Assembly: GCA_033178465.1 (NCBI GenBank)
Contig: GCA_033178465.1_4726.4
DNA from: a phage
Length of the DNA: 37,920 bases
Strand: one strand, 5' to 3'
Shown: one piece after another, positions 4,081-28,886 of the stretch
Numbering within the stretch: the stretch's first letter is position 1
Layout of the letters: every line of letters starts with the position of its first letter
The notes under the pieces: generated by a model
Database searches by the model: none
What the model was told of the DNA's origin: nothing
The model's input: only the letters and a program-made list of their open reading frames with translations
Translations under genes and position numbers: made by a program

Positions 4081-4084
4081 AAAC

Positions 4085-4116
4085 CATCCTCCCAACCCGT
4101 AAGGGAAGGGAGGATG
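4085..4116. terminator. Conserved hairpin at convergent gene junction (loop AACCCGTAAGGGAA)
   Basis: Stem CATCCTCCC / GGGAGGATG (9 bp) enclosing a 14-nt loop with inner CCC-GUAA-GGG; an identical loop recurs at 28864-28877. Confidence 0.45.
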
Positions 4117-14189: not shown

Positions 14190-14939
14190 TTAGGGATGGC
14201 GCAACATAGTCACATCCCAGCATACCAGCTTGCTTTTCTCAAGCATCTTCTGCGCGATATCGACGCTAACTCTAGGATGCATGACAGGTAGCCAACGTTC
14301 GTTAAGTACCTTCGCTTCCAGGCGTTGCTTGCGCTTATTGTAACGTACCTCGCTAACCCATGCGTAACCAAAAGGATGGATAACCCGTGGGTAGTAACGT
14401 TTAAGCATCATCAGTCTTTGCTGATAAAGTTTATCGGAACCCTCGCTAACGAATAAGGCAACCCGTTCCAACCGCTTGGTGTAATACGTTCCGGTGGTAT
14501 GATTGATCCAACCAGGAAGTGCGCGTACGTCATTTTCGAGTGTTCCTGATACGTTGTGCACTTCACCGCTATACACCGTCCCAACAACCTGATTCGCTGC
14601 GCCCACCATCGACCGTGGCAAAGCATCCGCGGTAGGATACAACCATGCGTCCCCAAGCTGCTCTCCCGACGCAAGTACGCGTAGTCCGCTTGCGCTCATC
14701 CGTTGCGGATGCTGGCTCTTATGCGCACGCAACTGCACCACAGATAAGTCCGCTGGATAGGCGACGCAACAACCTCGCTGACGGAACAGTCCAACCTCAC
14801 CATCCATCCCTTCGATCATGCTTCCTTCCGAACCGTTCCACCAACGCTTAACCTTCACGCATTCCGCTTGCACAGCCTCAGGCAACGTTAGATAATCGTG
14901 CTCGATAAACACCACATCAAAAATTAATTCATTGTTCAT
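14190..14939 (-). CDS. Hypothetical protein (249 aa), first gene of the small-gene cassette
   Basis: ATG 14939 with AGAGGA upstream; immediately downstream of the AT-rich regulatory region. Confidence 0.55.
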   Translation of the reverse strand: MNNELIFDVVFIEHDYLTLPEAVQAECVKVKRWWNGSEGSMIEGMDGEVGLFRQRGCCVAYPADLSVVQLRAHKSQHPQRMSASGLRVLASGEQLGDAWLYPTADALPRSMVGAANQVVGTVYSGEVHNVSGTLENDVRALPGWINHTTGTYYTKRLERVALFVSEGSDKLYQQRLMMLKRYYPRVIHPFGYAWVSEVRYNKRKQRLEAKVLNERWLPVMHPRVSVDIAQKMLEKSKLVCWDVTMLRHP

Positions 14940-15190
14940 TTAAAAAGATCCTCTGTTTCACGTTAATTAAACAACGTATTGATTTCTATTCGACAACAAT
15001 ACGAACATTGTCCGTATGCATCATAGAGGTAATATAGCCGTGAAAGGATTTGTGTTACAGAAAGGGTTTTGTTGTGTTTTAAGAAGGGATGGATTTAGAA
15101 GAGGTGTTTCAAGGAAGGTAAACGAGGATGGTTATTTTAATTTAAGTAAGTAAGATGTTATCTGTATTTGTTAAAAGTGTATTGTCCATG

Positions 15191-15254
15191 TTATCTTGTT
15201 TATCTTAGGTTTAATCGTTTTATCTTTGTATGTTTAAGTTGTTTTATTTATCTT
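15191..15254. repeat. Iteron-like TTATCTT heptamer repeats (4 copies)
   Basis: TTATCTT at 15191, 15200, 15220 and 15248. Confidence 0.4.
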
Positions 15255-15738
15255 GTTTGTATATTTAAATTAAATCAATAAGCGTATCTTCAAAACAATG
15301 GATAACATGTGTTTACTACCTTAATGGTAACACATGTCATCTGTGCATTACACTCCGTTATCACTTCGTTACATGCTTATATGTTGGATAACTCAAAAAA
15401 CCATTTGTGATACTCTTCTTCACGTTGTTCATCAGAGTATCTCGTCTATACTCATTGCATTCGTATACGACATAACCGTTATACGCTAACGCTACGCTTA
15501 TAGCTTGATAACTCTAAGGATAAAAACATAAACTCGCTTCGCTCGTTTAGTTTTTCTTTTTCTTAGAGTTATCCTGTTGCTCGTCTCTAAAGGACTTCGC
15601 TCCTCCCCCGTCCCCCGAAGGGGCCGAGGTCGTGGAAATTTTACTTTCCAAATACATTTACAACATCTGTAAACTTTTACTCCAGGTACTTAATCTTATC
15701 ATTAGAAATTATAAAGAGAAGAATAAACACAAACATAA

Positions 15739-15763
15739 ACCTTCCCCCGACCCAACAGGGAAG
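15739..15763 (-). terminator. Intrinsic terminator candidate after gene 15783-16676
   Basis: Stem CCTTCCC / GGGAAGG with 11-nt loop; on the minus strand it is followed by a T-rich tract (complement of 15721-15738). Confidence 0.45.
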
Positions 15764-15782
15764 GAGGAAGGGAGAGATTAAA

Positions 15783-16676
15783 TTATTCGGAAACGTTGTA
15801 ACCGAATACGGCTTTACCGTAGGTGTGGGTACCGTCAGCTAACGACACCACTAGCACATGGTTGTATGTGGCGTTAACACCCTTGTCGGTAGACTCGGTG
15901 GTAGCACCGTTATAGACAAAGGTAGCTGTTTGCAGATTGGCTTTCAGCTCGGTGATGATCTCCTCACTTACACCCGTCTGCTCTTTGATCAGCGTAGTCA
16001 GGTTACCTGCCAGGGTATCATCGATCTTGGTTTCATTACTGGTAATCGCCTGTAAGCCTACAGTGTAGGTGCTGAAGTCTAACGGATAGGTTAACAGACG
16101 TGCTGACGTTTTGGTACCATCGCCTTCATCAACGTAGGTTAAGTTACCCAGGTTGGTAACCTTGATGATGTTAGCCAGATCCAGCGTGGTGTTATAAACT
16201 TTAACTTGAACAGAACCATACCACGCCAACGAATCTTCTTTGGCTTCCAGGGTGATCGTCTGGATACCATGATCGTCGAAGGTAACAGGATTAGCTAACG
16301 TATCGGCTTTGATGTCTTTCGCTTTATCCAGGAACTTCTCACCGGAAGGCGTGATCATACCGTAGCGTTGAGCTACAAGGTCAACCACATCACCGATGGT
16401 GGTGTTCGCTTCAACGTTAACACGTACAGCGATCTTCTGGAACCACTTAGCCAGATCCAGACGATGGTAGGTAACATCGCGTTCATTGAAGTAAGGGGTA
16501 CCTTCACCAGGGCTAAGCGTTAAAGTTGCTTCTGGAGCAGAAGCGCTTTTGGATTTAAGAACGTATTTAAGATCACTGTATTGGAAGCTGGCACCAGTGT
16601 CGGCGTTGAGCTGGTTGATCTCATCAACGATAAGTTGCCAAGGTGTTTTTAAAGTAAGTGAAACTTGAGTTGCCAT
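15783..16676 (-). CDS. Paralog-family protein (297 aa), probable virion structural protein
   Basis: ATG 16676 with GAGGT upstream; shares the motifs TYHRLDL, LVAQRYGM and SLAWYGSVQV with the tandem paralogs at 28896-32515 and with the 180-aa protein; moderately optimised codon usage. Confidence 0.65.
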   Translation of the reverse strand: MATQVSLTLKTPWQLIVDEINQLNADTGASFQYSDLKYVLKSKSASAPEATLTLSPGEGTPYFNERDVTYHRLDLAKWFQKIAVRVNVEANTTIGDVVDLVAQRYGMITPSGEKFLDKAKDIKADTLANPVTFDDHGIQTITLEAKEDSLAWYGSVQVKVYNTTLDLANIIKVTNLGNLTYVDEGDGTKTSARLLTYPLDFSTYTVGLQAITSNETKIDDTLAGNLTTLIKEQTGVSEEIITELKANLQTATFVYNGATTESTDKGVNATYNHVLVVSLADGTHTYGKAVFGYNVSE

Positions 16677-16721
16677 TTTCTACCTCTATGGTTGTTACAT
16701 CACTCTCAAAAGATGTAAGTG

Positions 16722-16750
16722 TTTACAGAAATTAATATATTTTATATTAA
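16722..16750 (+). promoter_or_regulatory. Sigma70-like promoter candidate for gene 16819-17361
   Basis: TTTACA (16722-16727), 17-nt spacer, TATTAA (16745-16750); about 60 nt upstream of the ATG. Confidence 0.35.
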
Positions 16751-16818
16751 TGTAAATAATATGGAGAACGACTCCGAATCTCCTTTTCGACCATCAAAAA
16801 ATCAGAGGACACACAATC

Positions 16819-18291: not shown

Positions 18292-18302
18292 AGGAACCTC
18301 TA

Positions 18303-19412
18303 ATGGAGTTACGTGTTTGTAAATGTTGCGGAGTGGAGAAATCTATTATTGAGTTCAAACCTACCACATCCGGGTATTACACAAGAACGTGTAAAAAGTG
18401 TTTGGTGGCATACAAGAAACAATGGAGGAAACTCAACCCAGATAAAGAACGTGCACAAATCAAACGTTATATGGAGAAATGTAAAAACAGAACAGGAGAT
18501 GTTAAGCTGGCTTACATCAGATCGTTGCAACCGGCGCTGCGTGTTAAGGCAAAAATAGACTACCCTGAAAATATTCTTCTCTTACATTGCTTTAAATGCG
18601 ATGGAGTTAAGCCGGTGGATAGTTTTGCTTTGGCTGCTGCTAGACCAACCGGTAGGTCGAATATTTGTCGAGCATGTTTGCAACAACACACCCACAACAG
18701 GAAATATCTCCCTACGGAACAGTTTTATCGGTGCCAACGTTGTGGTAAAACGAAACCAGCCGATCAATTTAGAGATCGATCCTCTGTGATTCGTGGAAAA
18801 CATTCTTACTGTTTAGATTGTGAAAAAGACGTTAAAGAAGAATTGTTGCGACGCAGAACTCCTGAATATCAGATTGAGAAACTAAAAGAGAAAAGTGTAT
18901 TGCTTGCGTGTAAACATGGACTGGATCCGGATAAGCTCTGGAAGAAATGCTCGAGTTGCGGCGAGATAAAACGACCATCCGATTTTTCTCGCAATTGCCG
19001 TGCAATAGATGGATACCAGTCTATTTGTAAACACTGTCGCTCGGCCAGTAGCGAAACATTCGCTGGATTCAGGAGACGTATCCATGCCGCCGTCGGTCAT
19101 GCGACGACCGTTGGTAAACTAACACGTCCTGATACATGCGAAGAGTGTGGCTGTAACGCATACACTGAGGCACACCATGACAACTATCTTAAACCTTTCG
19201 ATGTTCGCTGGTTATGCCGTAGCTGCCATCGTAAAGTCCATTTGAATTACGTATTTGTTGAAATACGTTATTTCAAGGAAAAAGGTTTAACGGTTGAAGA
19301 AGTTGTGCGTCGAGCTTACCCTGACGCTTTTGATTGGGTGGTGGTTAACCCGGAAGATAAGAATGCGCTAGTTATCGTCCGAGTACCACCACAGTTACGA
19401 GAGTTAGATTAA
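18303..19412 (+). CDS. HNH endonuclease with four N-terminal zinc-ribbon-like repeats (homing-endonuclease-like)
   Basis: C-terminal CEECG...HHDNY...WLCRSCHRKVH HNH motif; four repeats of C-x2-C-G-x2-K-x4-F...C-x2-C; visibly AT-richer than neighbours; opposite orientation to both flanking genes; start only 11 bp from the endolysin start. Confidence 0.7.
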   Translation: MELRVCKCCGVEKSIIEFKPTTSGYYTRTCKKCLVAYKKQWRKLNPDKERAQIKRYMEKCKNRTGDVKLAYIRSLQPALRVKAKIDYPENILLLHCFKCDGVKPVDSFALAAARPTGRSNICRACLQQHTHNRKYLPTEQFYRCQRCGKTKPADQFRDRSSVIRGKHSYCLDCEKDVKEELLRRRTPEYQIEKLKEKSVLLACKHGLDPDKLWKKCSSCGEIKRPSDFSRNCRAIDGYQSICKHCRSASSETFAGFRRRIHAAVGHATTVGKLTRPDTCEECGCNAYTEAHHDNYLKPFDVRWLCRSCHRKVHLNYVFVEIRYFKEKGLTVEEVVRRAYPDAFDWVVVNPEDKNALVIVRVPPQLRELD

Positions 19413-19420
19413 TGTCGAAT

Positions 19421-19444
19421 AAGAGGGAGTGGCAGCTCCCTCTT
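19421..19444 (+). terminator. Terminator candidate after the HNH gene
   Basis: Stem AAGAGGGAG / CTCCCTCTT (9 bp) with 6-nt loop, followed by a partly T-rich run. Confidence 0.4.
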
Positions 19445-19488
19445 TATGCCGTGTTGTTAAATACTGGATTTAGAGGAACAGGAAGGGT

Positions 19489-19570: not shown

Positions 19571-21619
19571 TCAAATACCTTTGGTTCCCTTCACGTGATG
19601 TGCGATTTCTTCAACCATTGCACGCAGGGCACGAAGCTGTTGGTCGTGTTCGTACCAACCGCCTAACAGAACCCCGCTATACACCATGGTGTCAAGACTT
19701 AACAGTCCTTTATCTGATACGTTGATCATTTCAGGGAACTGTTCTTGAACACGCTGTGCGATAACACCGATCTTCTCGACATCAGGATCGTAGTTGTGAC
19801 GGAAACGGGCAAGCCCGCTGCGCGCCATTTCGCGTAAACGTTCACTGAGAGATTCCGGATGATCTTTCAGATAACGAATGTCGTGTTTACTACGCTCATC
19901 TGAACGGATGTAAGCGTTAGGAACATCGATGTTGCTGTTGAAGTACAGCGCACTACCACCGCCTGCAGAGTTCCCCCAATAGAAGCGTGTGATCTCACCG
20001 CCGCCATTTTCCGTGATGATAACATGTTTACCTAAACGCGTACCACCGTTACCATCAACGAAGACCAGTTTGTTTCCGCTGTAAGAACCCCAGAACAAGC
20101 GTGTATCGATGATGTGTGTTGCAGCGAGACGGGCGTTACGTGGTGTAGAATACACGGTGTTAACATCTTGCTGCGCATGTGCATCGGAAGCGATACCATA
20201 GTTCTGTACGTTACCCAATCCCACCTGCGCTTTTGTAACAGCATGCGGGTTATCCCGACGGTTAGCGTGAGCGTTAACCAGATCACCCGCTAATTTCTGA
20301 ATTGCCCAGTTGGTAGACTGTGGTGTCATGTAACGGTTCGTTGCAGAACCACCTTGCGCTTCAGCTTGGTTAGCGGTTGGGTAGTTCTCAACACTTCCTA
20401 ACCCTACTTGTGCCTTAGACACTTGGTGTGGGTTATTCTTATCGGCGATGTGTGCATTAAGCGGAACTAACGCAAAGGTCTCAATGGACGCTTTGGTTGT
20501 GTTCGGTGCCATTAATCGGTTAGCTGCAACACCAGCACGCGCTTCTTCTTCAGAAGCCATTGGGTAGTCTTGCACATTCCCTAACCCAACCTGTGCTTTG
20601 GTCACCCTGTGTGGGTTGTTGTAATCGGCTTTATGCGCATTAAGCGGAATCAGTGCGAACTGTTCAATCGCTGCAACAGTACGTAGCGGCGTCATGAAAC
20701 GGTTGTTCGCTGTACCCGCTTTTGCTTCAGAGTCCGACGCTGTCGGGAAGTTATCAACGTTCCCAAGGTTAACCTGTGCTTTGGTGACGCTATGCGGGTT
20801 ATCCCGGCGGTTAGCATGCGCGTCGACCAGATCGCCTGCCAGTTTAGCAATCGCCCAGCCAACCGTCTGTGCTGTCATGTAACGGTCAGGTGCAGTACCG
20901 GCTTCTGCCTCCGCCTTGTTTGCGGTAGGGTAGTTCTGTACGTTACCTAGTCCGACTTGGGCTTTTGTTACTTCGTGCGGGTTATCGGTACGGTTAGCAT
21001 GTGCGTAATGCAGATCGGTCAGATCTTTATCCGCCGCTTGCATGTCTTTGCGTAGCTGATCGATTGCCGCCCAGAGACGGTTATCGGACGCAGCATCACC
21101 GATAAGTATTGCAGCTTTTAACGAATAGATCGCTAAGCAAAGATGCTCGGTACCGTAGATGGCGCTAACGTGGTGGATGTGTGGTTCAGGCGGATAGAGT
21201 TCTGGTTTGTTCTTGATGTCGTCCCAGTTGATCGGACGATCGTCAAGTTTGAGTTCTTCGATAGCCTGATATAACGCGTCAATAAGACTTACGTAAACAC
21301 CACCGATGATACGATAGTCGTTAACTAACGTACCCTCGATATCATCGTTGATGATGGCGATGGCTGCACAGATTTCTTTACCAGCGTAAAGCGTAGCGTC
21401 CTGATACAAGAAGATGGGCTTATAATCCACGCCTCGTACCAGTGTCTTACCGGTAAGCTTTTCAGTGATGACCAGACTTTCGGTGAAGAACGGTCCGCCA
21501 TCAAGGGCGTAACATTTATTCTCGGTTCGTGGAACGGTATGCTCTTCACCAACGATGTGGTTGCTGGCGAGTGTACCGGTCCAGTCCTCGGGGTACTTCA
21601 GGGTAATTGGTGTCGACAT
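19571..21619 (-). CDS. Tail fibre protein with about five tandem 61-aa repeats and C-terminal intramolecular-chaperone (peptidase S74-like) domain
   Basis: Five repeats with core NPHxVTKAQVGLGNVxNY...YMTP; C-terminal SDERSKHDIRYLKD...GLLSLDTMVY matches the self-cleaving chaperone domain known from endosialidases and L-shaped tail fibres; N-terminus similar to gene 25306-27459. Confidence 0.8.
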   Translation of the reverse strand: MSTPITLKYPEDWTGTLASNHIVGEEHTVPRTENKCYALDGGPFFTESLVITEKLTGKTLVRGVDYKPIFLYQDATLYAGKEICAAIAIINDDIEGTLVNDYRIIGGVYVSLIDALYQAIEELKLDDRPINWDDIKNKPELYPPEPHIHHVSAIYGTEHLCLAIYSLKAAILIGDAASDNRLWAAIDQLRKDMQAADKDLTDLHYAHANRTDNPHEVTKAQVGLGNVQNYPTANKAEAEAGTAPDRYMTAQTVGWAIAKLAGDLVDAHANRRDNPHSVTKAQVNLGNVDNFPTASDSEAKAGTANNRFMTPLRTVAAIEQFALIPLNAHKADYNNPHRVTKAQVGLGNVQDYPMASEEEARAGVAANRLMAPNTTKASIETFALVPLNAHIADKNNPHQVSKAQVGLGSVENYPTANQAEAQGGSATNRYMTPQSTNWAIQKLAGDLVNAHANRRDNPHAVTKAQVGLGNVQNYGIASDAHAQQDVNTVYSTPRNARLAATHIIDTRLFWGSYSGNKLVFVDGNGGTRLGKHVIITENGGGEITRFYWGNSAGGGSALYFNSNIDVPNAYIRSDERSKHDIRYLKDHPESLSERLREMARSGLARFRHNYDPDVEKIGVIAQRVQEQFPEMINVSDKGLLSLDTMVYSGVLLGGWYEHDQQLRALRAMVEEIAHHVKGTKGI
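20190..21010 (-). repeat. Tandem in-frame repeats, about 183 bp period, 5 copies (tail-fibre repeat)
   Basis: Recurrent plus-strand block resembling GTTCTG-ACGTT-CC-A-CC-AC-TG-GCTTTGGT-AC at about 20198, 20383, 20567, 20750 and 20933. Confidence 0.75.
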
Positions 21620-25305: not shown

Positions 25306-27459
25306 TTATAACGTTTCGAAGTCGGTTGCTTTGATAACCGCGTTGAAGTTGGCAAGGAATTCCTTAAGCAGTGCTTGGAAGACATCACGAAACGCCGTGT
25401 TCGTCTGCAAGCTGGTTAAATAATCGTTCTTAAGGTAATCACTCAGCTTACCGATCTTCTGCATCTTCTCGCCGTCTTGGTTCTCTCCAGGTTCTTGGCT
25501 GTTGATGTTAACCCATTTGATCCCTTCGAGATCGCCATCGGCAAGGAAGTTAGCGGGCGTCTCATCGTCGTTCAGGATTTTAATTGTGTCGCTGGATTCA
25601 ATGCCACCGTAAGCTTCCAGAAGCTGGTTGACTGTTAGCGTGTTGGTGTTGATTGAACCATTGACACCATCAATACCGATGCCTGCACCTGTGATGGATG
25701 TCGCCGAAAGATCGATCGGTCCGGTTAACTTACCACCGTTGATCGGTAACGCACCAACTTGCTCAGCGGTGTGGGTGTGGTTGGCTAACGCCGCAAATGC
25801 CACAATTGACTTGTAAGTCGAGTACGGTGTCATGTACGTCGTTTGGTTAGTCTTGTCGGCAGCTTGCGTGTCGGTGGCGACAGTAAAGTCCTGCACGTTC
25901 CCCAGACCAACTTGAGCCTTGGTTACACCATGGGGGTTGCTCTTATCGACAACGTGTGCTGCAAAACCATCACCTGCTAAAGCGATGATTGCCGCTTTTG
26001 TCGCAGCCGGTGTCATATAGCGGTTGGTTGCTTCACCCGTTTGCGCCTCTTCGTCGGAAGCAACAGGATAGTTCTCAACGCTCCCCAAACCGACCTGAGA
26101 TTTTGTTACTTGGTGTGGGTTTTCGGTATTCGCGATATGACTACTGAACCCTTGACCAGCCAGTTGCTCGATTGCGTAACGAACAAGTATTGGCGTCATG
26201 TACTTGTTGTTAACCTGACCATCGATAGCTTCTTGGGTGGTGGCAACCCCGAAGTTTTGCACGCTCCCCAACCCAACTTGAGCTTTCGTAACAGCGTGGG
26301 GGTTATTGGTGTTACCGATGTGATCGGTAACCGTTGGGGTGATTAATCCTGCGATAGCGGCTGCCGTGGTCGCAGGGGTCATGTATTTATCGTTAGCAAC
26401 ACCCGCAGCAGCTTCTACGTTAGATGCTACACCGTAGTTCAATACATTTCCTAACCCAACTTGAGCTTTGGTTACCCCGTGGGGGTTGTTCTTGTCTCCG
26501 GTATGGGTTGTCAACGTAGCGTTAACGTTATCGATACGCGTGCTTAAGCCATCGGTGATTGCTTTGATTGCGGCTCGTACACCCGCTGGTGTCGTGTACA
26601 GATTGGTGGCCGTACCGGTAATGGTTGCATTACTATCGGCTGTACCGTAGTTCTCAACGTTTCCGAGTCCCACCTGGGCTTTAGTTACCTTGTGTGGGTT
26701 GTTGTAGTTGCTGATGTGCGCAGCAGCACTATCACCACTCAGGTTAGCGATCATCTTACGCGTCATCGCCAACGTCATGTACAGATTTTCACCGATGGTT
26801 TCCAGATCGCTCTCGGTCGCCGTTGTGAAGTTCTGAACATTCCCCAATCCAACTTGAGCCTTGGTTACACCATGGGGGTTATCGCGACGATTCTCGTGTT
26901 GTAGCAATGCGGTCATTGCTTTATTGAACCCTTCTTCAAGCGGTTCTTTCAATGATTCGATTGCCGCCACCACATCGTCCCACGTCATTGTGTCGGTTTC
27001 GACATTATGTTGGTGGTTGATTGGCGGGAATACGGAAGGAACGTCAGCAACCTTTTCCCAGAACGTAACGCGGGGATCGTAAAGGTTGTTGGCTAAAACG
27101 TTAAGAATTTGTTGTTGATCAAGTGTAAACTCACCCCCCAGTGAATAGTAGTTCAGTTGCAACTGTCCACTGAATGCGGTGTCCAACAGCATGATGGAAC
27201 CGTATAATTCCAGGCCGGTCAGCGCAGCCATGGCACGGAAGGGGTGAGTGCATAAAAAGTCAACGCCTTCTTCCAGATACGCGTTTGTTTCAGGGTTGTA
27301 GATCTTTAACCCATTACGAAAATATGGCGCGTATTTAGGAACGAGAAAGTTAAATCCGGTCCCCGTGGAAGGACGGACAGTGACGAGTTCTTCTGGAACC
27401 CATGCGCCATCCAAATTCCCCTGCGGGTTATACGGAAGGCGTTTAATTTCATCTGTCAT
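25306..27459 (-). CDS. Tail fibre protein with about six tandem 61-aa repeats (717 aa)
   Basis: Six repeats with core NPHxVTKAQVGLGNVxN...YMTP; N-terminal domain similar to gene 19571-21619; no S74 domain at the C-terminus. Confidence 0.75.
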   Translation of the reverse strand: MTDEIKRLPYNPQGNLDGAWVPEELVTVRPSTGTGFNFLVPKYAPYFRNGLKIYNPETNAYLEEGVDFLCTHPFRAMAALTGLELYGSIMLLDTAFSGQLQLNYYSLGGEFTLDQQQILNVLANNLYDPRVTFWEKVADVPSVFPPINHQHNVETDTMTWDDVVAAIESLKEPLEEGFNKAMTALLQHENRRDNPHGVTKAQVGLGNVQNFTTATESDLETIGENLYMTLAMTRKMIANLSGDSAAAHISNYNNPHKVTKAQVGLGNVENYGTADSNATITGTATNLYTTPAGVRAAIKAITDGLSTRIDNVNATLTTHTGDKNNPHGVTKAQVGLGNVLNYGVASNVEAAAGVANDKYMTPATTAAAIAGLITPTVTDHIGNTNNPHAVTKAQVGLGSVQNFGVATTQEAIDGQVNNKYMTPILVRYAIEQLAGQGFSSHIANTENPHQVTKSQVGLGSVENYPVASDEEAQTGEATNRYMTPAATKAAIIALAGDGFAAHVVDKSNPHGVTKAQVGLGNVQDFTVATDTQAADKTNQTTYMTPYSTYKSIVAFAALANHTHTAEQVGALPINGGKLTGPIDLSATSITGAGIGIDGVNGSINTNTLTVNQLLEAYGGIESSDTIKILNDDETPANFLADGDLEGIKWVNINSQEPGENQDGEKMQKIGKLSDYLKNDYLTSLQTNTAFRDVFQALLKEFLANFNAVIKATDFETL
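25880..26930 (-). repeat. Tandem in-frame repeats, about 180-190 bp period, 6 copies (tail-fibre repeat)
   Basis: Recurrent plus-strand block at about 25888, 26075, 26253, 26438, 26650 and 26830; source of the repeated antisense pseudo-ORFs in the track. Confidence 0.75.
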
Positions 27460-27509: not shown

Positions 27510-27563
27510 TGTGTTAACAGCGGTAAAATATTACTGTAACTATAAAATAAGGGGGCCTCTCCC

Positions 27564-28844: not shown

Positions 28845-28854
28845 CCAAACATAA

Positions 28855-28886
28855 CCCTCCTCCAACCCGTAAGGGAAGGAGGAGGG
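28855..28886. terminator. Conserved hairpin at convergent gene junction (loop AACCCGTAAGGGAA)
   Basis: Stem CCCTCCTCC / GGAGGAGGG (9 bp); 14-nt loop identical to the one at 4094-4107. Confidence 0.45.

Follow-up and report, generated by a model that had tools for sequence, protein, structure and literature searches.

The 843-bp intergenic gap at positions 14940-15782 of a 37,920-nucleotide phage sequence (NCBI GenBank assembly GCA_033178465.1, contig GCA_033178465.1_4726.4; this whole stretch is referred to as the window) is best read as a composite transcription-control region on the minus strand, in which a structured non-coding RNA (ncRNA) would lie between the terminator of the gp022 homologue and the early promoter of the gp021 homologue; a probability of roughly 0.55 is assigned to this reading. 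The element in question is a block of about 300 nt, nearly invariant among related phages, which likely represents, on comparative evidence, a new structured ncRNA gene of an unclassified candidate family confined to Goslar-like phages. Over its whole length the window runs colinear with the initial 37 kb of the genome of Escherichia phage vB_EcoM_Goslar (Goslarvirus, Chimalliviridae), with 95.5% identity and a match of about 90% over the gap region, and to judge from this alignment its source is a Goslar-like nucleus-forming E. coli jumbo phage.

The gap separates the ATG of the gp021 homologue (14190-14939, 249 amino acids (aa), no family match) from the stop codon of the gp022 homologue (15783-16676, 297 aa, a DUF7941 virion protein), both on the minus strand, and the genes upstream of it encode DUF7941 virion proteins. 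Its Goslar counterpart between gp021 and gp022 (NC_048170, 14972-15825, 854 bp) is the longest of the 115 gaps free of open reading frames (ORFs) in that 237-kb genome, and holds the 400-bp window with the lowest GC content of the genome (28.5%, the next lowest having 35.0%); in the sequence studied here, GC content is 32% at 15001-15500 and about 46% elsewhere. An earlier reading of this DNA, made from its letters alone (the original prediction), had described an AT-rich non-coding gap with iteron-like heptamers and dyad repeats. This description was borne out, since GC is low and no ORF inside the gap exceeds 51 aa; the small ORFs are disrupted by indels in relatives, and two plus-strand ORFs of 45 and 37 aa were rejected as genes for this reason. 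What the original prediction passed over is the most striking feature of the gap, the near-invariant block at 15401-15700, while the features that it stressed are the least conserved, the TTATCTT tract being rich in indels and the dyad segment being lost in one genome (L004).

Conservation and distribution of the block

Homologous gaps were compared from 22 genomes, comprising Goslar, three IMG/VR contigs, ten contigs chosen for a gp022 homologue with 76-92% protein identity, and eight metagenome contigs; counts of invariant runs refer to the first four genomes, and those of column variation, AGATAA copies and the early promoter to 14 genomes. Single-protein locus searches of IMG/VR returned the same three Goslar-like contigs and nothing else. 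A motif scan of metagenome and genome contigs yielded eight new Goslar-like copies of the block, the 14 remaining loci being chance matches in unrelated genes or metagenome-assembled genomes. The gp022 homologues of isolated phages, with at most 31% identity, are too distant for a comparison of synteny. Five short-read Logan contigs (L019, L021, L023, L025 and L027) end 35-50 nt past the gp022 stop, at the repeated terminator hairpin, and the gap is often absent from fragmented assemblies because short-read assemblies break at this hairpin.

The longest run invariant in four genomes measures 299 nt (15402-15700), the runner-up within 9 kb only 107 nt. Among 14 genomes, 19 of the 280 core columns vary (6.8%), eight of them in a single hairpin apex. 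In the adjacent gp022, 48.8% of columns vary, and 229 of its 443 variable columns are third codon positions, corresponding to about three-quarters of such positions. Identity of the core to the window is 93-99.7% across the 22 genomes, and that of the flanking genes 75-84%; non-coding sequence conserved well above its flanking genes is what would generally be expected of an ncRNA gene. By these comparisons, purifying selection acts far more strongly on the block than on any of the neighbouring genes. No other DNA in the surrounding 9 kb comes close to its degree of conservation, and the genes of this phage group otherwise diverge freely.

The block is single-copy in Goslar according to a profile hidden Markov model search, and the same kind of search detected no copy in two more distant relatives, L014 (51% gp022 identity) and L018 (56%). 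A covariance model of the 5' domain gave a weak full-length match at the syntenic position of L018 (L018:1983-2075, 15.6 bits, E = 0.016), where the related element sits behind a different gene than gp022. In the still more distant L014, the terminator abuts the promoter and the element is lacking. A BLAST search of 50,697 phage records with the block returned Goslar only, besides chance 22-nt matches in Staphylococcus phages. The block does not appear to be host-derived, because no match was obtained among 5,426 E. coli genomes.

Predicted fold and probable strand

The minus strand of the block has a fold z-score of -5.1 and the plus strand one of -4.0, with consensus fold energies of -78.9 and -61.3 kcal/mol, respectively. 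On the minus strand the minimum-free-energy and centroid folds are nearly identical, with a well-defined centroid, and the consensus comprises 12 helices with 84 pairs, in which 99.7% of the sequence-by-pair cells are standard pairs. None of 500 column shuffles reached this value, and sliding the partners by 1-3 columns reduced it to 36-53%. An RNA from the minus strand, which is the coding strand of nearly all genes, is favoured because that strand carries invariant G.U pairs, a C(UUCG)G tetraloop and tandem G.A pairs in the long hairpin. Several changes from U.A to U.G, or between C.G and U.G, are tolerated on the minus strand only; four transitions produce U.G on the minus strand and an A.C mismatch on the plus strand, and no reverse case was found. 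Conservation of the block stops exactly at the U-tract, which ranges from U5 to U9 in relatives.

Variation in the individual hairpins (Table 1) follows the pairing. In P4, CU and UC alternate opposite GG with pairing kept through G.U; in L042 the top of this hairpin is flipped (loop UUCG to CGAA), both bulges are closed and a U.G pair becomes U.A, the stem being kept, and at the same position L018 has CCUG-A-CCCG-AUUC-CGGG-G-CAGG, with compensatory differences. P7/P8 is invariant in all sequences save for one internal-loop change in L029. The apex of P11 occurs in four variants (AAUGCAAUG, CGCGAAGCA, AGCGCAGUG and AACGCAGUG), and two pairs are kept in all four (AU/UA, GC/CG, GU/CG, AU/CG). 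An extended-hairpin fold for 15444-15503 was tried and rejected, as it keeps 94.4% of pairs versus 98.7% in the two-hairpin consensus. Substitutions in the block preserve hairpins, not codons, and none of its short ORFs has a ribosome-binding site; by the pattern of these changes, the block is not coding.

The covariance search for structured RNAs that had been proposed as a check was run against Rfam 15 and matched no described family: the window gave no match at the gathering score, and the region 14900-15800, searched at E values up to 10, only chance-level hits to snoR28 and U6. ARAGORN found nothing either. A search for antisense targets of the block detected no complementary match longer than 16 nt to another site in either orientation. 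The suggestion that the gap could hide an ncRNA thus stands in so far as comparative evidence points to one at 15401-15700, and falls as regards the repeats that had been highlighted.

Table 1. Features of the gap and of related intergenic sites (window coordinates unless Goslar is named)
Feature	Position	Strand	Evidence
Candidate structured ncRNA core: 280-nt near-invariant stretch (15680 down to 15401), then U6 tract (15400-15395)	15395-15680	-	conservation; U-tract
Hairpin P4, CCUCG-G-CCCC-UUCG-GGGG-A-CGGGG, with C(UUCG)G tetraloop	15606-15629	-	consensus fold
Long hairpin P7/P8: 12-bp perfect basal stem, A/U helix, tandem G.A, GCGAAGC apex	15508-15572	-	inverted repeat I1; folds
Hairpin P11; apex (15452-15462) is the sole hypervariable spot of the core	15444-15471	-	fold and alignment
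3' hairpin P12: 8-bp stem GAUACUCU/AGAGUAUC, invariant 17-nt loop, then ACAAAUGG and U-tract	15409-15441	-	folds
Near-palindrome GTAAAAGTTTAC at start of invariant core	15669-15680	.	motif search, 12-mer
Box GAUAAGAUUAAGUA (ATAAGATTARGTA across relatives) at 5' edge of block	15687-15700	-	alignments A4, A5
Intrinsic-terminator hairpin of gp022 homologue, CCUUCCUCCUUCCCUGUUGGGUCGGGGGAAGG	15740-15771	-	terminator scan; -22.6 kcal/mol, z = -4.5
UUUAUG, short U-tract of the terminator, also resembling the phiKZ TATG late-promoter/transcription start site motif	15734-15739	-	directly 3' of hairpin
Accessory hairpin (dyad of the original prediction), then CAUUGUUUUG	15301-15341	-	inverted repeat I8; fold
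AT-rich tract with five same-strand AGATAA (TTATCT on plus strand at 15158, 15191, 15200, 15220, 15248)	15158-15253	-	repeat search
Conserved pyrimidine-rich block upstream of promoter	15077-15126	-	50-nt run invariant in four genomes; alignment A3
Putative virion-RNA-polymerase early promoter TTTCACGGCTATATTAC (17-mer of the original prediction)	15029-15045	-	motif match
5' leader of gp021 homologue: small hairpins, GAGGA Shine-Dalgarno sequence (14953 down to 14949)	14940-15028	-	inverted repeat I9; fold
GTAAA-N2-TTTAC near-palindromes, window	15669-15680, 16715-16726, 27523-27534		
GTAAA-N2-TTTAC near-palindromes, Goslar	173087-173098, 176758-176769, 81200-81211, 188961-188972, 16758-16769		

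Proposed function and alternative explanations

Briefly, transcription of the late virion gene, the gp022 homologue, would end at the hairpin and UUUAUG, while the single-copy element (15700 or 15680 down to 15401, then the U-tract) would be the gene for a stable structured minus-strand ncRNA. This RNA is proposed to act in trans as a protein-bound, ribonucleoprotein-type RNA and not as an antisense regulator, because its stems, loops and linkers are nearly invariant and no long complementarity to other phage transcripts was found. The near-palindrome GTAAAAGTTTAC at the start of the RNA, common to the intergenic regions of chmA and the DNA-polymerase genes, may co-regulate it; the AGATAA tract between the RNA and the promoter would bind a DNA-binding protein at multiple sites, and the early promoter TTTCACGGCTATATTAC would drive the leader and the gene run from gp021 to gp014.

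Several observations weigh against this interpretation. The shuffle control may be exceeded by related sequences that have no structure, compensatory change on both sides affects only 3 of the 84 pairs while most pairs never vary, and the plus strand of the block also folds significantly (z = -4.0). The 3' hairpin is AU-rich and stands 8 nt from the U-tract, unlike the standard terminators of this phage; no recognisable promoter precedes the block, whose 5' box occurs nowhere else in the genome; and the TATG following the gp022 terminator is not kept in L016, L020 and L024, which have TATAC. Recombinant haplotypes occur in and around the block, with all four G/T by C/gap combinations and mosaic sequences in L024 and L026. 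Near-total base invariance moreover exceeds what structure needs and would fit a DNA-level element or a recent recombinational sweep as well. The expression, strand and ends of the RNA are all properties that we infer from sequence; published Goslar RNA-seq counts are given per annotated gene (10.1101/2023.09.20.558163).

The main rival, which is considered unlikely, holds that the gap acts in cis as a unique DNA site for replication initiation, packaging or maintenance, in which AGATAA would bind an initiator, the 28%-GC tract would unwind, and the block would form part of the DNA site or a pre-primer or origin transcript like that of ColE1 or T4. It keeps this rank because the array of repeats, unique and set in the most AT-rich part of the genome, adjoins a transcript-like element. 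The gap is the longest and lowest-GC segment of the genome, as an AT-rich unwinding element would require, and the AGATAA cluster is unique in the genome, its copy number of 4-7 and its orientation being kept in 14 genomes despite turnover. A minus-strand transcript would run from the block toward the AT tract, and the GTAAAAGTTTAC motif of the block start adjoins DNA-polymerase genes and chmA. Recent reviews of the family are silent on a replication origin, and Goslar-like phages have been reported to persist in bacterial isolates with no known plasmid-type replication or partition genes.

The replication origin put forward in the original prediction nevertheless found no support here, as there is no skew turn near 15 kb, the repeats of 6-8 nt are irregular, the dyad is lost in L004 and no initiator-like gene is adjacent. 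Cumulative GC skew, the check suggested for it, was computed over the whole Goslar genome: it is flat from 10 to 100 kb, then descends to its lowest point at 215,114, at the start of a large plus-strand gene, with no switch in strand composition at 15 kb. This is weak evidence, because phages replicating by recombination may show no skew. The repeat unit (AGATAA/TTATCTT), spaced at 9, 20 and 28 bp, differs from phased iterons of 17-22 bp, and the flanking ORFs have no Pfam or PHROG match to an initiator. Pair-keeping changes seen on one strand only point to selection at the RNA level in the block, and an A-rich RNA would form only a weak R-loop. The detrended Goslar skew has its maximum at 98,175, and its slope changes near 98-100 kb despite same-strand genes throughout, which could reflect gene class or replication. 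A combined possibility, rather improbable, is that the frozen RNA of about 300 nt and the AGATAA/AT-rich tract form a replication-start or maintenance module, consisting of a pre-primer or copy-control RNA with an iteron-like array; if true, Chimalliviridae would have a first defined origin, and the persistence of 'virulent' jumbo phages in isolates a candidate explanation.

Quite improbable, too, is that the block is a cis-acting part of a read-through mRNA, either a structured 3' extension of the gp022 message or a hub for RNase III/E processing and stability. The block does follow the gp022 terminator on the same strand at a distance of 40 nt, lacks a recognisable promoter of its own, and has long imperfect hairpins of the type that RNase III cleaves; in T7, RNase III cuts such hairpins. 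However, a strong terminator (-22.6 kcal/mol) of a genome-wide family stands between gp022 and the block, the L018 element follows a different gene, and the block is far more conserved than the gene it would serve. That the block has no function and owes its uniformity to a recent spread by recombination, or to gene conversion, between Goslar-like phages in co-infections is very unlikely. The recombinant haplotypes and the L024 and L026 mosaics agree with this view, as do perfect runs of 322-532 nt found elsewhere in the window when Goslar alone is compared; against it, the block stays uniform across 22 genomes with differences of 16-25% in their flanking genes, the longest other run in the four-genome comparison measures 107 nt, the few existing changes respect base pairing, and a sweep limited to 300 nt would itself imply selection. 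The least probable explanation, hardly to be entertained, is that the block is a coding sequence for at least one small protein, such as that of a 36-aa minus-strand ORF at 15547-15657. Short ORFs do exist on both strands, but none has a Shine-Dalgarno sequence, the changes in L042 alter three residues of the 36-aa ORF while keeping the hairpin, the other gap ORFs are disrupted by indels, and the variable sites lack three-base periodicity, with near-total invariance where synonymous change would be expected.

Signals flanking the candidate RNA

The 17-mer GTAATATAGCCGTGAAA, noted as conserved in the original prediction, recurs unchanged at 2496-2512, in front of the gp004 homologue, and 0.10 matches would be expected by chance at 3 mismatches. 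It is the reverse complement of TTTCACGGCTATATTAC, which contains the phiKZ core TATATTAC and fits TTTRARR_BTATATTACDWHDGTG. Early promoter motifs have been published for phiKZ (TATATTAC) and 201phi2-1 (TTTRARR_BTATATTACDWHDGTG), together with extended motifs for 201phi2-1, OBP and N1M2 (PMC7058600, Table 2), and such motifs mark early promoters used by the virion RNA polymerase (PMC7598289). Goslar carries the motif at at least 12 sites, all on the gene (minus) strand, one of them 73-89 nt upstream of chmA. The sequence at the chmA transcription start site, as it appears in a published figure based on RNA-seq 5 min after infection, begins 91 nt upstream of the ATG, and the region from this point on contains the motif. 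The promoter is conserved in 14 of 14 genomes, and also in the distant L014 and L018. These data support the assignment of 15029-15045 as a phiKZ-type early promoter, an ordinary element of known kind. The early promoter cluster that had been proposed is supported in part, as a single promoter: the motif is present in one copy in the gap, and the TTATCTT repeats do not resemble it.

The genes behind this promoter (gp021 to gp014 homologues) encode eight small, fast-evolving proteins, as is typical of early genes, and none of these eight ORFs downstream of the gap has a Pfam or PHROG match. In L004 at about 2900-2950, aligned with about 15010-15020 of the window, 43 inserted nucleotides repeat part of the early promoter and leader sequence (TTACCTTCATGATGC...), and a long inverted repeat results just downstream of the promoter.

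At the opposite edge of the gap, the terminator seen in the original prediction was recovered as a minus-strand hairpin. It starts 11 nt past the gp022 stop codon and is followed by UUUAUGUUUG, with a short U-run of three U, in keeping with an intrinsic terminator. It is one of three family copies in the window (4083-4116, 15738-15771 and 28853-28886), and the Goslar minus strand holds 15 such GC-rich hairpins (L002, L010-L013), almost invariably followed by TTTATGC(C/T)GT. An A-to-G change of the window within the hairpin yields a U.G pair on the minus strand only. By its recurrence, the gp022 terminator is of the form used genome-wide by the Goslar-like phage, and of an ordinary known kind. 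The late motif of phiKZ is T(-3)ATG(+1) (PMC7598289), and the hairpin with TTTATG may combine termination with restart in one module instead of being a plain U-tract terminator.

The 5' box at 15687-15700 has no second copy in the Goslar genome and, as far as its position suggests, may form the 5' portion of the RNA or else act as its promoter; a sigma-70 promoter scan found no more sites than in shuffled sequence. The adjoining GTAAAAGTTTAC 12-mer occurs six times in Goslar with at most one mismatch, five of these sites falling in the roughly 7% of the genome that is intergenic; the region between gp022 and gp023 holds a sixth, looser intergenic match. The sites include positions upstream of chmA/gp245, upstream of the DNA polymerase gp244 and beside the polymerase fragment gp068, and an exact 16-mer, AGTAAAAGTTTACAGA, is also found upstream of chmA (Goslar 173099). 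These GTAAA-N2-TTTAC near-palindromes, almost confined to intergenic DNA, adjoin chmA/gp245, DNA-polymerase genes and divergent virion-gene promoters. A literature search did not find this element described. On its distribution, GTAAAAGTTTAC is a candidate operator or promoter element and may tie the RNA to replication-phase genes.

The repeats of the original prediction all exist. The four TTATCTT heptamers at 15191, 15200, 15220 and 15248 account for four of 11 matches in the entire window, all of them on the plus strand, with about 0.02 expected per 64 bp; the AATGG(A)TAACA direct repeats are AATGGATAACA and AATGGTAACA, and the 13-nt inverted repeat is formed by GATAACATGTGTT (15301-15313) and AACACATGTCATC (15329-15341). 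The latter corresponds to the accessory hairpin, whose stem is conserved and loop variable; the segment containing it (15290-15385) is entirely absent from L004. It may be a second terminator, and is dispensable.

The heptamers belong to the AGATAA tract, the densest such cluster in the Goslar genome (6 per 200 bp, the runner-up having 3). All 14 genomes keep 4-7 equally oriented copies within DNA of 27-31% GC, in spite of indels and changes of length, and a rough hand calculation from the base composition of the tract gives a chance expectation of about 0.4 copies. The tract is suggestive of a multi-site binding array for a DNA-binding protein. TTATCTT was discarded as a DnaA box, the consensus being matched, by eye and with no scan run, by the TTATC half only. 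The hexamer GATAAC occurs 60 times in the whole window, with about 21.6 expected and none of 100 shuffles reaching 60, and seven copies fall within 15157-15573. In L018, a head-to-tail series of four very small ORFs for hydrophobic products (25-32 aa) occupies 2351-2724, on the strand opposite the RNA-like element and between it and the early promoter, a position that corresponds to that of the AGATAA tract in Goslar-like phages.

Other loci

Aside from the gap, a 369-aa ORF on the plus strand (18303-19412) matches HNH, endonuclease VII and Stc1-like domains and lies in a segment of about 1.2 kb with no Goslar counterpart (18298-19466 unaligned); L028 has a similar ORF. From its domains and placement, the segment looks like a free-standing homing endonuclease insertion between endolysin and tail-fibre-like genes. 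Two large minus-strand tail-fibre-like genes of the Peptidase_S74 type (20184-20985 and 25871-26880) share diverged repeat arrays with a 183-nt period. The second-longest gap of the Goslar genome (82470-83288, 819 bp; L010) stands behind a NUMOD1/HNH gene that follows a DNA-polymerase fragment; it probably represents an intron that carries a homing endonuclease, the downstream exon or RNA being unannotated.

Significance and comparison with known systems

Should the block prove to be an RNA, it would found a new family and might open a way into gene timing, mRNA handling or persistence; should it instead be a DNA site, it may represent the missing origin. Goslar-like genomes become better annotated through the promoter and terminator assignments. 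A literature search returned no mention of ncRNAs in Goslar or of replication origins in the nucleus-forming phage family.

The putative early promoter agrees with those of the phiKZ type in that TTTCACGGCTATATTAC is multi-copy, intergenic, on the gene strand and placed ahead of chmA and small-gene operons; it differs from an early-promoter cluster in being single in the gap. Transcript-primed origins such as ColE1 RNA II/RNA I, T4 ori(uvsY) and ori(34) and the T7 primary origin likewise have a structured or promoter-proximal transcript running into the most AT-rich DNA of the replicon, and Goslar encodes an RNase H (gp190) that would fit the comparison. In contrast to these systems, the gap has no GC-skew signal, the A-rich RNA-like strand of the AT tract disfavours an R-loop, and a U-tract and a hairpin stand between the block and the tract. 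Same-strand direct repeats beside an AT-rich stretch, in a cluster unique to the genome, recall the iteron origins lambda ori, P1 oriR and plasmid oriV, whereas the 6-8-nt repeats in place of 17-22 bp, their irregular spacing, and the lack of an adjacent initiator gene and of a skew switch set the gap apart.

Among RNAs, non-coding and antisense transcripts of phiKZ have been found by RNA-seq and differential RNA-seq (Ceyssens 2014 and Wicke 2021, as cited in PMC11077065 and PMC13282480). Like them, the candidate transcript is non-coding and comes from a nucleus-forming jumbo phage; unlike them, and with no sequence or Rfam relationship to them, the Goslar-like element is intergenic, about 300 nt long and defined by conservation, not by expression. 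It also resembles phi29 pRNA, the T4 species 1 and 2 RNAs, GOLLD and ROOL as a predicted structured intergenic phage RNA of a few hundred nucleotides that is presumably protein-bound. GOLLD and ROOL are both in Rfam and neither matches the block, and no homology to phi29 pRNA or the T4 RNAs was found. Whereas relatives of phi29 pRNA keep their structure while the sequence drifts, in the Goslar-like block the sequence itself is nearly frozen.

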